From: Candidatus Sungbacteria bacterium RIFCSPHIGHO2_01_FULL_50_25
GTDB taxonomy: Bacteria > Patescibacteriota > Minisyncoccia > Sungbacterales > HO2-52-23
Direction of reading: 5' to 3'
Assembly (NCBI GenBank): GCA_001822215.1
Contig: MHQD01000026.1
Span: forward strand, 1-42,047
DNA: 42,047 nt
Below the pieces are notes generated by a model. It saw only the letters and a program-made list of their open reading frames with translations. It was not told the DNA's origin and made no database searches. Positions 9,729-41,943 of the stretch are shown in pieces (position 1 is the first letter of the stretch; the number at the start of each line of letters is the position of its first letter). The position numbers and the translations under genes are program-made.

Positions 9729-10550
9729 CTACTGATGTCCGCCGCCGCCAGAAAACCCCTCCCAGTACCCGAACCGGCCCGCCTCCTGCTCCCAGGCCCG
9801 CCTCTCGCGAGCCAGGTTGTCCTCAAGCCGGCGATTCTGATACCAGTCGGTGAAGGCGCGATTCTCAGCGCCCTCGAACCTTCCGTTCATGTAGCCGAGG
9901 GAGCTTCTGCACAGGTGCGGGTAGGCCTGGCAGGTCGAAATGTGGGGAGTTGGCCCACCAACGACCGGCCTACCACCCCAGTTGGGCATCTGGGGCGGGA
10001 CACCCCACTGGTACCCACCACGATTCCTACCGCCGCGATGTCCTCCGTGCCCGCCCACTGGCACCACCTTGTAGTGATGGTGCTCATGCACCACCACGCG
10101 ACCACCACACGGCGGACCCGGCTGGATGCACATCACCGGCCCGGTGATGGGACCTGGCTGCGGATAGCCCGAAACAGGAGCGTACTGCGGAGCCGGAGCG
10201 TACTGCCCCTGGCCACCGCAGTAGACCTGACCGGTCCGCGGGTCACGGTAGACCTCGTCCCGACCACAGCTGATCGGAACGTTGTCCGTTGCCTCGAGCG
10301 CGAACTGGATGATGCCGCCGATTGCGGCACCTGCCATCGCGCCCTTGGCAGGCCCGATGTCCTTGCCGAGAATCGCGCCGCCAGCTGCCCCGGCAGCAGC
10401 GCCGATCGCGCCCGCGCCGAGGACCCTCTCCAACGACGAGTTACCATTGAAGATATCACCGAGGCCACCCGCCTCGACTCGGGTCGCGCCCACCATGGGC
10501 GCGAACATGACCGCGACGAGCGCGATCACAACCGCCACGAACTTTTTCAT
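9729..10550 (-). CDS. secreted glycine-zipper protein with a Gly/His/Pro-rich C-terminal half
   Basis: ORF 9729..10556. The second ATG (10550) lies 6 nt after AAGGAG. It has a signal peptide MKKFVAVVIALVAVMFAPMVGATRVEA and a glycine zipper GAGAIGAAAGAAGGAILGKDIGPAKGAMAGAAIGGII, followed by HEHHHYKVVPVGGHGGHRGGRNRGG. The gene is GC3-rich. Confidence 0.7.
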   Translation of the reverse strand: MKKFVAVVIALVAVMFAPMVGATRVEAGGLGDIFNGNSSLERVLGAGAIGAAAGAAGGAILGKDIGPAKGAMAGAAIGGIIQFALEATDNVPISCGRDEVYRDPRTGQVYCGGQGQYAPAPQYAPVSGYPQPGPITGPVMCIQPGPPCGGRVVVHEHHHYKVVPVGGHGGHRGGRNRGGYQWGVPPQMPNWGGRPVVGGPTPHISTCQAYPHLCRSSLGYMNGRFEGAENRAFTDWYQNRRLEDNLARERRAWEQEAGRFGYWEGFSGGGGHQ

Positions 10551-13727: not shown

Positions 13728-13927
13728 TGCCGGCCGAGGCCGTGGACAATTACTCCGGTATAGGAACACGGAGGTTAGGATTGTTCCCAGGCACTGTCCA
13801 GCTCGCTACACTCGATATATCGAAATTTCGAAATATCAAGTACGGAGAACCAGACAGCCCTGGTGTAACAATCCCCTTTAAGGCGCCTCGTGAGATTTGC
13901 CTTAATTGTCCACGACCTCGATCGGCA
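13728..13927 (+). ncRNA. candidate rod-shaped structured RNA with 6S-like architecture (alternatively a MITE-like inverted-repeat element)
   Basis: The closing stem pairs 13728-13752 with 13903-13927: 12 contiguous bp (CGTGGACAATTA/TAATTGTCCACG) plus 11 more pairs including one G:U. A large internal loop follows (25 nt 5' side, 28 nt 3' side). The inner stems are GGATTGTT/AACAATCC (13778-85 with 13867-74), CCAGG/CCTGG and CTGTC/GACAG. The apical region is AT-rich. An intrinsic terminator follows immediately. Confidence 0.35.
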
Positions 13928-13936
13928 CTACGATAT

Positions 13937-13959
13937 TAAAAAGGGGTCATCCCCCTTTT
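13937..13959 (+). terminator. intrinsic terminator
   Basis: AAAAAGGGG-TCAT-CCCCCTTTT. This is a short GC stem flanked by an A-tract and a T-tract, lying between the PilB-type gene with its RNA candidate and ruvB. Confidence 0.6.
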
Positions 13960-14003: not shown

Positions 14004-15023
14004 ATGTCAACTGACGGAGATGTCGCGAAAAAGAAGGAGCGCGACGACCCCGCGCTTGATCTTGCGCTCCGGCCGAAGGAATGGGCGGAGTATATCGGCC
14101 AAGACCACGTGAAAAAAAATCTCCGCGTTTTTATCGATGCTGCGAAAAAACGCGGAGAGCCGCTTGAGCACGTTCTCCTGTCCGGCCCGGCCGGACTCGG
14201 AAAAACGTCTTTGGCCCACCTTGTCGCAAGAGAGATGAATACGAATATACGCGTGACCTCGGGCCCCGCGATAGAGCGCGTGGGAGATCTTGCATCAATC
14301 CTCACAAACCTCATGCCGGGAGATATTCTTTTTATCGACGAGGTTCACCGCCTGAACAAACTTATCGAGGAGGTGCTCTATCCTGCGATGGAATCAAGGA
14401 CTCTTGATATCATTATCGGGAAGGGCCCCTCGGCGCGCACCATCCAGATTGAATTGCCTCCGTTCACCCTTATTGCCGCAACGACTCGCGCGGGGCTTTT
14501 ATCCGGGCCGCTTCGATCGCGATTTGGCGCAAGCTACCGGCTTACTTTTTACACCGCTGAAGATTTGGGGACTATTGTTTCCCGCTCCGCGCGGCTTTTG
14601 AGAACGCCAATCGACGCGGATGCAATCGCGCGCATTGCGCGCTCGTCGCGGTTCACCCCGCGCGTCGCAAACCGGCTCCTTAAGCGCTGCCGCGACTGGG
14701 CCCAGGTCCACGGCACCGGAACCATCACCGACGAGACCGCGCAAAAGATGCTCGCGCTCCTTGAAATCGACGACCTTGGGCTTGAGCCGATGGACAGGCG
14801 GATTCTCGACGTTGTCGTGACAACGTTTTCCGGCGGGCCCGTGGGGCTTCAGGCGCTTGCGGCCGCGACAAGCGAGGAAGAAGATACTATTGTGGAGGTC
14901 TACGAGCCGTATCTCATGCAATTGGGGTTTCTTGAGCGAACGCCCCGCGGCCGGGTTGCCACAGAGCGCGCGTACTCCCACCTCGGGCGCTCTCTGCCCG
15001 TCCAAAAACCGCTCATCACCTAA
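14004..15023 (+). CDS. ruvB: Holliday junction DNA helicase RuvB
   Basis: 339 aa. It has Walker [12 protein letters not shown], Walker [11 protein letters not shown] and sensor/arginine motifs ([17 protein letters not shown]). Confidence 0.97.
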
Positions 15024-38457: not shown

Positions 38458-38486
38458 TTGACTTTCTATTATATTCATGCTATAAT
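38458..38486 (+). promoter_or_regulatory. near-consensus sigma70 promoter
   Basis: TTGACT (38458-63), an exactly 17-nt spacer, then TATAAT (38481-86). It lies ~95 nt upstream of the ATG at 38582 and is the best promoter match in the window. Confidence 0.65.
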
Positions 38487-38581
38487 TGATCCGCAGTTCT
38501 CCACAATTTGAGTTTACATAAACTCCCGCATTACGCGGGGCAAACGCCCGCGAAAAGCGGGAGAAAGGCAGGGTAGCAAAG

Positions 38582-39277
38582 ATGGCACAGCATTGGTGGG
38601 AGAAGCCGACGAACTTCGTCGTCGGATTCGTTCGGAGGCGGCTCGAGAAGCAGTATGAGCACAAACTCCTTGAGTTCGCGGTGAAGTATCCGTCGATCCG
38701 CCGCGTCTACGAGGAGCTCGGCAAGGACATCACGCTCGACCTCATCGGCGGTATCATCGAGAATTTCCCTGACCCGAAGGATACAAAGTCGGTCAAGGGG
38801 AATCTTCTCGCGGCCTTGAAGTACTTCGCTCTGATCACCCCGCGCGAGCTCGGCCGTATTTTCGATGAAGGCCGGGACCTCGGCGCCGCACCCGGTATCC
38901 CAGGTGTCACGGCAGCAACGCCCGTGCAGGTCGGAGCTCTGATCGCGCAGATTGCAGAGCTCGATGATGCTGGGGAGTTTCTTAAGTGGCTCAAAAAGCT
39001 CAACCCCAGAGATCGGGTGTTTTTCTGGGGCGATGTCGCGAAGTGGCAGCCCGCGGAGCGGCTCGTGTTCATGAAGGAGTATGACGCAATCGCCCGTAAC
39101 GCTGTCATCCGGCAGTTTGTGCCGGAACCGCCAGCGCCGCCGACACCCAAAGAGGAGGCCGCGCGCCGAGCGCGAACCAAAGCGTTCAACCGCCGCGCCA
39201 CAGAGGTCGTAAATCCCCTAACAGATGCCATTCGTGGCGTCACTACTCGCCTTAACAGCGATCTCCCGCGTCCATAG
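38582..39277 (+). CDS. hypothetical protein (231 aa), GC3-rich
   Basis: This is the long ORF with plausible protein composition; the antisense ORF 38707..39297 is Arg/Ser-rich shadow. No family recognised. Confidence 0.7.
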   Translation: MAQHWWEKPTNFVVGFVRRRLEKQYEHKLLEFAVKYPSIRRVYEELGKDITLDLIGGIIENFPDPKDTKSVKGNLLAALKYFALITPRELGRIFDEGRDLGAAPGIPGVTAATPVQVGALIAQIAELDDAGEFLKWLKKLNPRDRVFFWGDVAKWQPAERLVFMKEYDAIARNAVIRQFVPEPPAPPTPKEEAARRARTKAFNRRATEVVNPLTDAIRGVTTRLNSDLPRP

Positions 39278-39295
39278 CGCGGGGAAGGAGATATC

Positions 39296-40159
39296 ATGAA
39301 CCCGTTTCAGCTCTTGGCAGAAGCGGCACTTCAGATGTTCGTCGCGGCTGTTGCACGGATCATACGGTTCTTCACCGGCCCGAGGCCGGGCGTGATTGCA
39401 CTCGCCGCCTGGGAGCGAGCTCGTGCGCTCATCAACATGATCATCGCCGCCATTGTGGTTCCCGTCATAGGAATCACCGCGGCCCTTGTTCTTGGTTACA
39501 CGAGCGTAGGCCTAGTAGACTTCGCAAGGGCGATACTGCTGCTCTGTATCTGGTTCAGCCTCCCGATCCTCATCGTCCTTCTCGGCGGTACGGGCGCGGC
39601 GATAGACATCCTGTTTAACGCCGCGATCGGCAAAGACAAGAAGTCATCAAAGGAGATTTTCAGGGGGTTTTTGGGAATCCCTTTGTGGCTCCTCGTCATA
39701 GCCGAGATCGTTCTCGTCATCGGTGTGTACGCGCCGATGACGGCGCTCGTAATCGGACCCCTCGGCGCCATGGGTATTCTGCTCCTGTCGTTTATCCGGA
39801 AGTGGAAGTTCACTTTTGGATGGGAGCTCGCGAGCGCGATCCAGGTCATCTTCATCACGTTCGCGCTTCTCGCTTCGGTTCCGTCGAGTTTTTGGCGGGC
39901 CACAGTCGGCTATAACCTTCGTCCAACCTTCTCGCTCTCCTGGAGCGTCGATGTAAGCGAGCGCGAGCTCGACACCATCTACGCAGAGGCGAAGTCAGCG
40001 CGATCCGCTGTCGCGGCGCGCGAGCTCCGCGAGGTTCGGTCGGAGATCAGTCGTGCGAGAACCCCCGAAGAAGTTCGGCGCGCGGAGGTCCGACTCGCCG
40101 AGTGGGAACGCAGATATTCGTCTGGTGTCGTTGAAGGCGCCAGGCGGATGACTCAGTAA
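39296..40159 (+). CDS. hypothetical polytopic membrane protein with a C-terminal coiled-coil-like tail (287 aa), GC3-rich
   Basis: A strong SD, GGAAGGAG, lies 6 nt before the ATG. There are about 6 TM helices, then ERELDTIYAEAKSARSAVAARELREVRSEISRARTPEEVRRAEVRLAEWERR. Confidence 0.75.
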   Translation: MNPFQLLAEAALQMFVAAVARIIRFFTGPRPGVIALAAWERARALINMIIAAIVVPVIGITAALVLGYTSVGLVDFARAILLLCIWFSLPILIVLLGGTGAAIDILFNAAIGKDKKSSKEIFRGFLGIPLWLLVIAEIVLVIGVYAPMTALVIGPLGAMGILLLSFIRKWKFTFGWELASAIQVIFITFALLASVPSSFWRATVGYNLRPTFSLSWSVDVSERELDTIYAEAKSARSAVAARELREVRSEISRARTPEEVRRAEVRLAEWERRYSSGVVEGARRMTQ

Positions 40160-40179
40160 CAGGTTCTTTCATACAAGGA

Positions 40180-40226
40180 GGTGAGACAGGCGGTCAGCTC
40201 AAGCAGTTGACCGCCTCACCATTTTT
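40180..40226 (+). terminator. intrinsic terminator ending the GC-rich two-gene unit
   Basis: GGTGAG(acag)GCGGTCA pairs with TGACCGCCTCACC, giving 13 bp with a 4-nt bulge, followed by ATTTTT. Confidence 0.7.
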
Positions 40227-40234
40227 AGGTAACA

Positions 40235-40591
40235 ATGGATATAATGGTAGAAAATCCACAAAGGAAAAAAGAAGAGTCCGCTGCTGAAGAAAAAAGCGAG
40301 GAAGAAAAGAGGGTAGAGCAAGAAGGGAAATCAAAGATCGTAGATACAGCGAGAGAGGTTGGAGAAAGAATAGTCGATCGAACCCGGGAGCTTTTTGGAA
40401 GTGACGGCGGATTAAGCGAACAGCAGGGAAAAGCAGCGAAGCGCATGGAGAGATTGAAATTCGGAGGGTCGATCCTCGGCGCCGGATTACTGTTGGCGCT
40501 TGCGGGAACAATCGCGCTCCCTTTTTGGGGCATGAAAAAAATCCTTCAAGCGGATAAGGATTTTATGAAGGGGTTCAATCTATTAAAGTAG
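40235..40591 (+). CDS. hypothetical small protein with an acidic N-terminus and one C-terminal TM helix
   Basis: 118 aa. The N-terminal half is charged. The TM helix is GGSILGAGLLLALAGTIALPFWG. Confidence 0.55.
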   Translation: MDIMVENPQRKKEESAAEEKSEEEKRVEQEGKSKIVDTAREVGERIVDRTRELFGSDGGLSEQQGKAAKRMERLKFGGSILGAGLLLALAGTIALPFWGMKKILQADKDFMKGFNLLK

Positions 40592-41214: not shown

Positions 41215-41260
41215 CGTCATGTATCTATCCTACGCTATAGCGTAGGATAGATACATGACG
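41215..41260. repeat. palindrome copy 3 (variant A), extended to 46 bp
   Basis: The core 41219-41256 is identical to 6167-6204. Flanking CGTC/GACG extend the perfect palindrome to 41215-41260. Confidence 0.95.
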
Positions 41261-41321
41261 GGTGGTGCGGATGAATTCGGCGCAAATCCCGTCAGGTGTC
41301 GCCACATAAACACTCATCGGT

Positions 41322-41900
41322 ATGCCTTCCTCCTATCGTCTGGGAAAAGAAGAAATAGTTCGTGCAATCCTCATGTCGCTCGGGGTTGCGGGGCTTGTTG
41401 TTGCCGCTGCCGCCGCGCCGAACGCAACGCTTCTTTTGAAGCCGCTCATTCGGAAAATGAATAGGCGGCCGATAGCGGACGATTCCCTGGAGCGGTCGCT
41501 CAGACGGATGGCGAAAAAGCGGCTTGTCGAATTTTCGGTGCGGAATGGAAAAACATATCTCCACATTACAGAAAGCGGAAGGAAAAAACTCAAGGAAATC
41601 GAGTTTGAATCAATGAAGATCGATATATCCGGATCATGGAATGGGGTCTGGACGGTTATTCTTTTTGATATACCGGAATCACGGAAAACCGCACGGGATG
41701 CCCTTCGGAGAAAATTAAAAGACCTCGGATGTTATCAATACCACAAGAGCGTTTTTGTTCATCCGGTATCTTGCGGAGATGAAATTGATTTTGTGGCTGA
41801 ATTTTTCCAAGTCGGGCGGCATGTCATTCATTTTGAAACGCGCTCGCTCGGAAACCAAGAACATCGCGCCCGGCGCTTTTTCGGGATCCGCGGCGCGTGA
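41322..41900 (+). CDS. PaaX-like protein (winged-helix N-terminal region plus PaaX/Cas2-fold-like domain)
   Basis: 192 aa. LRRMAKKRLVEFSVRNGKTYLHITESGRKKL is wHTH-like. WNGVWTVILFDIPESRKTARDALRRKLKDLGCYQYHKSVFVHP matches the W-x-G-x-W...(F/Y)-x-(I/V)-PE...R...L...G...SV(W/F)(I/V)-x-P pattern of the PaaX family. Confidence 0.65.
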   Translation: MPSSYRLGKEEIVRAILMSLGVAGLVVAAAAAPNATLLLKPLIRKMNRRPIADDSLERSLRRMAKKRLVEFSVRNGKTYLHITESGRKKLKEIEFESMKIDISGSWNGVWTVILFDIPESRKTARDALRRKLKDLGCYQYHKSVFVHPVSCGDEIDFVAEFFQVGRHVIHFETRSLGNQEHRARRFFGIRGA

Positions 41901-41901
41901 T

Positions 41902-41943
41902 CAATGTATCTATGCTACGCTATAGCGTAGCATAGATACATTG
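41902..41943. repeat. palindrome copy 4 (variant B), extended to 42 bp
   Basis: The core 41904-41941 is ATGTATCTATGCTACGCTATAGCGTAGCATAGATACAT, a perfect palindrome. Flanking CA/TG extend it. It starts 2 nt after the stop of the PaaX-like gene. Confidence 0.95.

Follow-up and report, generated by a model that had tools for sequence, protein, structure and literature searches.

What is a two-gene unit with sharply GC-rich codons, and with a promoter and terminator of its own, doing beside the chromosomal type IV secretion system (T4SS) operon of a bacterium with a tiny genome, and did it arrive there recently? The question is raised by contig C26 of Candidatus Sungbacteria bacterium RIFCSPHIGHO2_01_FULL_50_25 (the window: 42,047 nucleotides (nt) of a 570 kb genome in 45 contigs, completeness estimate 89%). 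An original prediction, made from the letters of the window, had read this unit, which encodes a soluble protein (A) and a polytopic membrane protein (B), as candidate foreign cargo: an effector/immunity pair, a membrane defence pair or an accessory module. The best-supported view is now that the pair is an old, genus-fixed cassette with a gene pool of its own composition, whose alleles are exchanged between lineages. We put at about one in two the probability that it is a polymorphic, recombining two-protein membrane module, probably acting as a conflict or specificity system. Patescibacteria have very small genomes, and among the genes specific to their lineages only a minority has a known function.

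The predicted signals make the unit an autonomous, strongly signalled two-gene operon, and all of its parts (promoter, structured leader, both open reading frames (ORFs), Shine-Dalgarno (SD) sequence and terminator) lie where they had been placed originally:

38458-38486, forward strand: sigma-70 promoter TTGACT-17-TGcTATAAT with a TG-extended -10 element, consensus score 11/12
38493-38581, forward strand: structured 5' leader of ~88 nt, from the predicted transcription start (~38493) to the ATG at 38582
38582-39277, forward strand: gene A, encoding a soluble, all-helical orphan protein of 231 amino acids (aa) with an N-terminal part and a middle domain (model confidence, pLDDT, 59.5)
39122-39274, forward strand: conserved Pro-rich linker VPEPPAPPTP and basic C-terminal helix of A, as defined by alignments and the mosaic pattern
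39284-39291, forward strand: SD sequence GGAAGGAG of gene B, 4 nt ahead of the ATG at 39296
39296-40159, forward strand: gene B, encoding a 287-aa polytopic membrane protein with about six transmembrane (TM) segments and the motifs GVYAP, VPSSFW and NLRP
40175-40226, forward strand: AAGGAGG motif followed by an intrinsic terminator (GGTGAG..GGCGGTCA / TTGACCGCC..TCACC, then a T-run), conserved in sequence in all lineages

Site, distribution and allelic variation

The unit lies between a Cys-rich gene on the T4SS side and a gene pair encoding a small TM protein and a DUF5663 protein. All genomes that represent species of the genus (3/3) have the pair at this site, as do at least six lineages known from metagenomes, and 12 population contigs, 99.6-99.97% identical to the window, carry an identical unit. 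On every contig with a relative the gene order is T4SS 331-aa protein, Cys-rich 124-aa protein, A, B, small TM protein, DUF5663 protein, PaaX (present or absent), KsgA, UvrD, LysM-M23, ComM, DksA and PNPase. This conservation of the pair at one site, across all genus genomes and all metagenomic relatives, speaks against the recent acquisition that had been proposed.

Outside the genus the picture differs. In three other genera of the family (represented by G019, a complete genome, G005 and G008) nothing separates KsgA from the Cys-rich gene at the T4SS locus; the block was therefore inserted at the genus level. A fourth genus (G023) has two small, unrelated genes in the gap. The unit is thus a genus-level accessory insertion, and its original description as an accessory element is borne out by these empty sites and by the restriction of B-family genes to 9/62 genomes and 5/42 genera of the order. 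Divergent B-like genes are found in g14 and g22 at other locations, again beside a DUF5663 gene and near PBP1a-dnaN-dnaA and HicAB, and in G020 a probable A homologue stands ahead of a B-like gene (hhalign E = 1.7e-5). Both families are small: A comprises 9 clusters among 5.8 billion proteins searched, and B comprises 6 clusters at 90% identity in the same 5.8 billion proteins and 23 clusters at 50% identity among 1.84 billion representatives. A scan of the contigs of GTDB genomes added nothing beyond a relative already known.

Within this fixed site, the allele classes of A and B spread independently of the flanking genes, as judged from a small sample of ~9 lineages. Identity between the flanks of the window and those of its relatives is 73-75% for the Cys-rich protein, 62-67% for the DUF5663 protein and 57-58% for the 331-aa T4SS protein. 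Against L001, the window is 34% identical in A and 67% in B; against L022, 78% in A (N-domain) and 23% in B; against L023, 45% in A and 86% in B; and against L033, almost nil in A and 24% in B. L022 and L023 share 94% identity in the neighbouring gene and 91% in the leader, but 35% in A and 25% in B, while L022 and L067, with flanks 52-75% identical (52% in the neighbouring gene), are yet 81% identical in B. At least four N-domain types and three tail types can be distinguished in A, and at least three types, 23-35% identical to one another, in B. All variants of A are mutually homologous, including the L033 allele (E = 4e-25 with the A profile), as are all variants of B (E = 6e-9 between B and B').

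Protein A is itself a mosaic, in which N-domain and tail types recombine at the conserved '..IRQFVPEPPAP..' linker. Tail type T1 accompanies B1 in five lineages, and the long tail T2 accompanies B2 or B3 in two. Within allele classes the ratio of nonsynonymous to synonymous substitution rates (dN/dS) is 0.04-0.25, rising to 0.65 in the A tail; for A it is 0.12-0.22, with a tail that evolves faster than the remainder (0.37-0.65), while the core of B gives 0.04-0.18 and its tail 0.3. These low values within classes indicate that both are functional genes under purifying selection. A fixed slot with conserved flanks, deep allele classes, polymorphism in both partners, purifying selection within classes and a narrow taxonomic range are typical of conflict and recognition systems.

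Composition and transcription signals

The G+C content at third codon positions (GC3) is 0.714 in A and in B, against a genome mean of 0.548 (standard deviation 0.065), placing the two genes at ranks 4-5 of the 541 crude ORF calls that served as the reference set. The excess, ~2.5 standard deviations, is sharp and bounded by the transcription unit, which also stands out in tetranucleotide distance (z = +3.4, rank 9 of 584 windows) and in GC content (z = +2.7). Among two-fold codons, frequencies in the pair and in the genome are 0.78 and 0.34 for AAG, 0.79 and 0.44 for GAG, 1.0 and 0.54 for CAG, and 0.81 and 0.51 for ATC. The atypical composition that first drew attention to the unit is thereby confirmed by GC3, codon usage and tetranucleotides alike, and the spot count over 38701-38760 (~62% GC) is reproduced at 61.7%; the flanking genes, which had been called clearly AT-biased at third positions, turn out to be ordinary for this genome (GC3 0.552 and 0.466).

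Orthologous A and B genes have a GC3 of 0.64-0.78, compared with 0.37-0.57 in the genes that flank them and values near 0.5 for the remaining genes of these genomes. Since orthologues are equally GC3-rich even where synonymous sites are saturated (synonymous divergence, dS, is ~1 between the window and L001), the excess is a property of the locus rather than the trace of an import not yet ameliorated. Expression-linked codon bias was rejected as its sole cause, the genes for EF-Tu (GC3 0.512) and ribosomal proteins (0.47-0.65) being average. High GC3 would instead reflect the gene pool of the cassette, through import from GC-richer relatives, GC-biased gene conversion (gBGC) at a locus that recombines, or both; g22 genomes, with a GC3 of ~0.7, are candidates for a GC-richer source.

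A common donor had also been suggested for the unit and an island at 9.5-10.7 kb. The two do agree in codon signature and strong SD sequence; the gene at 9.7-10.5 kb has no orthologue in the genus or family, so that its history and that of the pair differ. AAGGAGG-type SD sequences are shared by the top-GC3 genes of the genome (9729-10550, reverse strand; 38582-40159; C39:8424-9302, reverse strand; C18:935-1522; C45:3231-3881, reverse strand), three of which stand behind sigma-70 promoters scoring at least 11/12. Several can be read as envelope proteins, namely the secreted Gly-rich product of 9729-10550, the C39 and C18 lipoproteins, and B. These genes with top GC3 and strong SD sequences form a class distinct from the leaderless native genes of average GC3.

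The promoter consists of TTGACT (38458-38463), a 17-nt spacer and TATAAT (38481-38486), and the layout TTGAC[TA]-17-TGnTA[GAT]AAT is kept in 7/7 lineages compared. Originally ranked as the best promoter of the window, it is surpassed by a 12/12 sigma-70 promoter with a TG element (TTGACA-17-TGnTATAAT) at 14010 on the reverse strand, which points leftwards to the 13728-13959 region. The leader contains hairpin elements (38523-38563) followed by a purine-rich pre-start region, GAGAAAGG, and folds better than shuffled sequences (with z = -2.7 over 108 nt and z = -3.6 over the hairpin core). Two tandem hairpins can form in every lineage, the second of them 97.6% paired with two compensatory pairs; a nested fold is the minimum-energy fold only in lineages of the window type and the L022 type. 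Covariance models of Rfam gave no family match to the leader, the best scores falling far under the gathering scores. The core stem of the terminator (40188-40216) has 12 pairs, and its T-run extends to 40226. A perfect AAGGAGG (40175-40181) begins 16 nt past the stop codon of gene B and extends into the terminator stem; it is kept in all lineages, yet has no start codon at SD distance. Promoter, leader and terminator are conserved across all allele classes and plausibly serve as recombination anchors.

The proteins and the explanations weighed

Models of both proteins were built with AlphaFold2 from 7-sequence alignments. The predicted fold of A has 10 helices, arranged as four helices, a Gly/Pro linker, five short helices, the Pro-rich linker and a long basic C-terminal helix; no signal peptide is found in this protein, and all A tails carry positive charge. 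B has 5-6 hydrophobic segments and a charged helical tail of 92 residues that is predicted to form a hairpin (coiled coil). Its successive loops contain 0, 4, 1, 5, 0 and 3 Lys and Arg residues, an alternation found across 24 family members; one of them (P0025), with an additional TM segment after the coil and a basic C-terminus, fits the same pattern. The VPSSFW..NLRP motif and the 90-residue hairpin are thus predicted to lie outside the membrane.

Scans of A, B, their variant alleles and their neighbours against Pfam, NCBIfam, PADLOC and PHROGs returned nothing significant. The PADLOC models matched neither A, B nor any variant, their sole match being a weak one to JukB (E = 0.002) in a variable neighbouring gene of relatives. 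Foldseek searches of PDB and BFVD gave no match below E = 0.4 for either protein, and sequence-profile searches of PDB returned compositional noise only. A contains no toxin or trafficking domain detectable with Pfam, NCBIfam or PDB profiles, and Pfam holds no VirB, Trb or Prg homologue of the pair; the effector, immunity or defence role named in the original prediction accordingly finds no homology support in any library search. Library scans detected no mobility domains in the neighbouring proteins, and no direct repeats were found flanking the unit. Neither tblastn against phage records nor a scan of IMG/VR yielded phage, plasmid or viral relatives, and an origin of the pair from any of these was rejected. 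Literature searches on DUF5663 and on hypervariable loci near patescibacterial T4SS brought up nothing relevant.

The arrangement we propose would have A as a cytoplasmic helical protein whose basic C-terminal helix docks onto the loops that B exposes to the cytoplasm, and B as an N-in/C-out polytopic protein with its helical hairpin exposed on the cell surface. The likeliest form would be a sensor with a membrane effector, for phage exclusion or non-self discrimination, in the manner of RexA/RexB or Kiwa. Homologous recombination in the conserved regulatory flanks would carry alleles from one lineage to another, and frequency-dependent selection would keep the polymorphism diverse.

The pair resembles several known systems in part. 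Like the cdiA-CT/cdiI loci of contact-dependent inhibition (CDI), Rhs-CT/immunity loci and kin-discrimination loci, it has a fixed site and conserved flanks, deeply divergent alleles shuffled independently of the genome background, and a first gene whose 3' part appears to travel with the downstream gene, a pattern that physical linkage alone could produce. In contrast to such loci, its first gene lacks a conserved N-terminal delivery domain, the N-domain being polymorphic as well; neither a toxin fold nor an immunity fold is detected, and the second gene encodes a large polytopic protein. With lambda RexA/RexB and Kiwa KwaA/KwaB it shares a soluble protein of ~230-300 aa co-transcribed with a polytopic membrane protein, a variable region and atypical composition. 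The apparent likeness is one of architecture only. There is no sequence similarity or PADLOC match, B differs in having ~6 TM segments and a probably external coiled coil, and the pair is genus-fixed rather than sporadic. Islands of high GC3 have been ascribed to horizontal gene transfer or gBGC, and the unit likewise shows a sharp local excess coinciding with demonstrable recombination; unlike the product of a single old transfer, its excess is inherited across species at saturated synonymous sites.

Several observations weigh against a conflict or specificity module. Neither protein resembles a defence, toxin, immunity or T4SS family in sequence or fold, confidence in the structure models is low (pLDDT 59.5 for A and 62.0 for B), and the topology of B derives from a simple charge count under the positive-inside rule. 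The co-variation of A tail and B type could reflect mere physical linkage, and has an exception in L067, where tail T3 occurs with a B2 whose N-terminus is altered. No dN/dS above 1 and no gross signal of positive selection was found in A or B. Defence systems usually vary by presence and absence; the pair is fixed in the genus.

Among the alternatives, a polymorphic effector-immunity pair, with A delivered by the T4SS through a basic C-terminal export signal and B as polytopic immunity protein, would account for the position next to the T4SS operon, the positive charge of all A tails, the allele shuffling typical of such loci, and the apparent co-variation with B of the part of A nearest to it, as in loci of the CdiA-CT/CdiI type. 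We consider it unlikely, given that A has no toxin or trafficking domain, that the T4SS operon has no detectable coupling protein, that the N-terminal and middle domains of A form a conserved scaffold detectable in another genus, that T4SS loci of other genera lack the pair, and that B, at 287 aa, exceeds typical immunity proteins in both size and conservation. The same adjacency, divergent from the T4SS operon across the genus, could mark an accessory of the T4SS, for instance a determinant of entry exclusion or self-exclusion that is paired with a channel protein of the system; in conjugative systems, the proteins responsible for exclusion are membrane proteins and polymorphic. This role is less probable still: the T4SS proteins track the phylogeny of the flanks and not B type (L001 and L033 are 85% identical in T331 and 89% in T678, and 27% in B), which argues against a matched T4SS partner, B-like genes of other genera lie near PBP1a-dnaN-dnaA, away from T4SS genes, and the T4SS loci of G019, G005, G008 and G023 are without the pair.

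Recent horizontal acquisition, as new cargo from a GC-richer donor that has yet to ameliorate, would fit a composition in the top 1-1.5% of the genome, a promoter, SD sequence and terminator of its own, in contrast to its leaderless neighbours, the site left empty in three other genera and filled by unrelated genes in a fourth, and the GC3 of ~0.7 that GC-richer family members offer. Every member of the genus and every population contig has the unit at this one site, its orthologues are equally GC3-rich at dS ~1, and searches found neither an integrase nor att-like repeats, nor any relative in phages or plasmids; we hold recent acquisition to be quite improbable. Rather better, if still slim, are the prospects of native, highly expressed envelope proteins, in which GC-ending codons would be co-selected with strong expression led by the SD sequence and allelic diversity would be a consequence of B serving as a surface target (for example, a phage receptor). 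Other top-GC3 genes do carry AAGGAGG-type SD sequences, three of them behind promoters that score 11/12 or better; their products are mostly secreted proteins, lipoproteins or membrane proteins, and the tail of B is predicted to be external. Against this stand the lack of bias in EF-Tu and ribosomal protein genes, a cytoplasmic A as polymorphic as B, and the absence of the module from most of the family. Finally, a very divergent sigma factor of the extracytoplasmic function (ECF) type (A) with a membrane anti-sigma factor (B) would suit the gene order and sizes, the model of A as two helical domains with a flexible linker, and the top Foldseek matches in PDB and BFVD, which are sigma factors at insignificant scores (E 0.5-6, probability < 0.15). 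It is scarcely credible, since none of 11 A-family members matches Sigma70_r2 or r4 at E up to 10, the two ECF sigma factors of the genome itself are easily found and give hhalign probabilities of 0.04% and 0.13% with the A profile, and the promoter of the unit is of housekeeping rather than ECF type; with probabilities no higher than 0.13%, this reading is essentially refuted at the sequence level.

The surrounding slot and its significance

The neighbours of the unit are typical of Patescibacteria, members of the candidate phyla radiation (CPR): a DUF5663 gene, a mini PaaX-like gene and, next to dnaN and dnaA, a chromosomal T4SS operon. The T4SS operon, from which the unit diverges, encodes a T4SS pilin, PrgI, a VirB4-like ATPase and a TraC-like protein. 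A chromosomal T4SS locus of this kind, near dnaA, has been described in Patescibacteria (PMC12102498). The T4SS components described there do not include the pair. The pair does not co-vary with T4SS proteins. Further features of this region are:

40207-40236, forward strand: promoter of the next gene, TTGACC-18-AACAAT, whose -35 box coincides with the 3' arm of the terminator of the pair
L022:641-1330 (reverse strand), L023:3-530 (reverse strand), L033:5597-6229 and L067:4101-4790 (reverse strand): gene for a 210-229-aa protein (GC3 0.37-0.44; JukB, E = 0.002)

The next gene probably starts at the ATG at 40244 (115 aa) and not at 40235, with a leaderless mRNA; gene callers put its start there too, at the position that corresponds to 40244. 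Relatives keep the overlap of terminator and promoter, in the form TTGACC-16-TATAAT with an ATG 8-9 nt later. The orphan 210-229-aa gene, membrane-anchored in its product, lies between the Cys-rich gene and A in four relatives and is absent from the window, L001 and L027. On the other side, the PaaX-like gene and its palindromes (41215-41943 in the window) are missing from L033 and L067, where DUF5663 abuts KsgA, so that the PaaX cassette varies independently. The site of the unit is thus a small variable slot.

In G005, the slot next to the small-TM/DUF5663 genes holds other membrane-protein genes (L079; G005:C10 4357-5160). The small-TM and DUF5663 duo also recurs beside PBP1a-dnaN-dnaA in other genera (L079, L035, L064), with varied membrane-protein genes directly upstream. 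The position upstream of this duo would therefore seem to be a conserved variable slot. Apart from this region, one of the two ECF sigma factors of the genome (187 aa, at C45:~11800; L074 34-2037, reverse strand) is followed by a 214-aa putative membrane anti-sigma factor and a 287-aa secreted coiled-coil protein, and the second is on C42.

The locus shows that anomalous composition, taken by itself, says little about recent transfer. A fixed position with conserved flanks, swapped alleles and a lasting codon anomaly usually marks genes engaged in conflict or recognition with phages, hosts or kin. A bolder version, for which the odds are long, would make the locus a recombination hot spot and the pair an undescribed self/non-self or phage-exclusion system of epibiotic CPR bacteria, maintained as a trans-specific polymorphism, with the GC3 excess as the footprint of gBGC or continual import. 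If true, the locus would be a natural marker of gene flow among ultra-small bacteria that have been thought largely clonal. It is a concrete, testable candidate for partner discrimination or phage resistance in epibionts, and offers a handle on recombination, and possibly on GC-biased gene conversion, in uncultured CPR populations.

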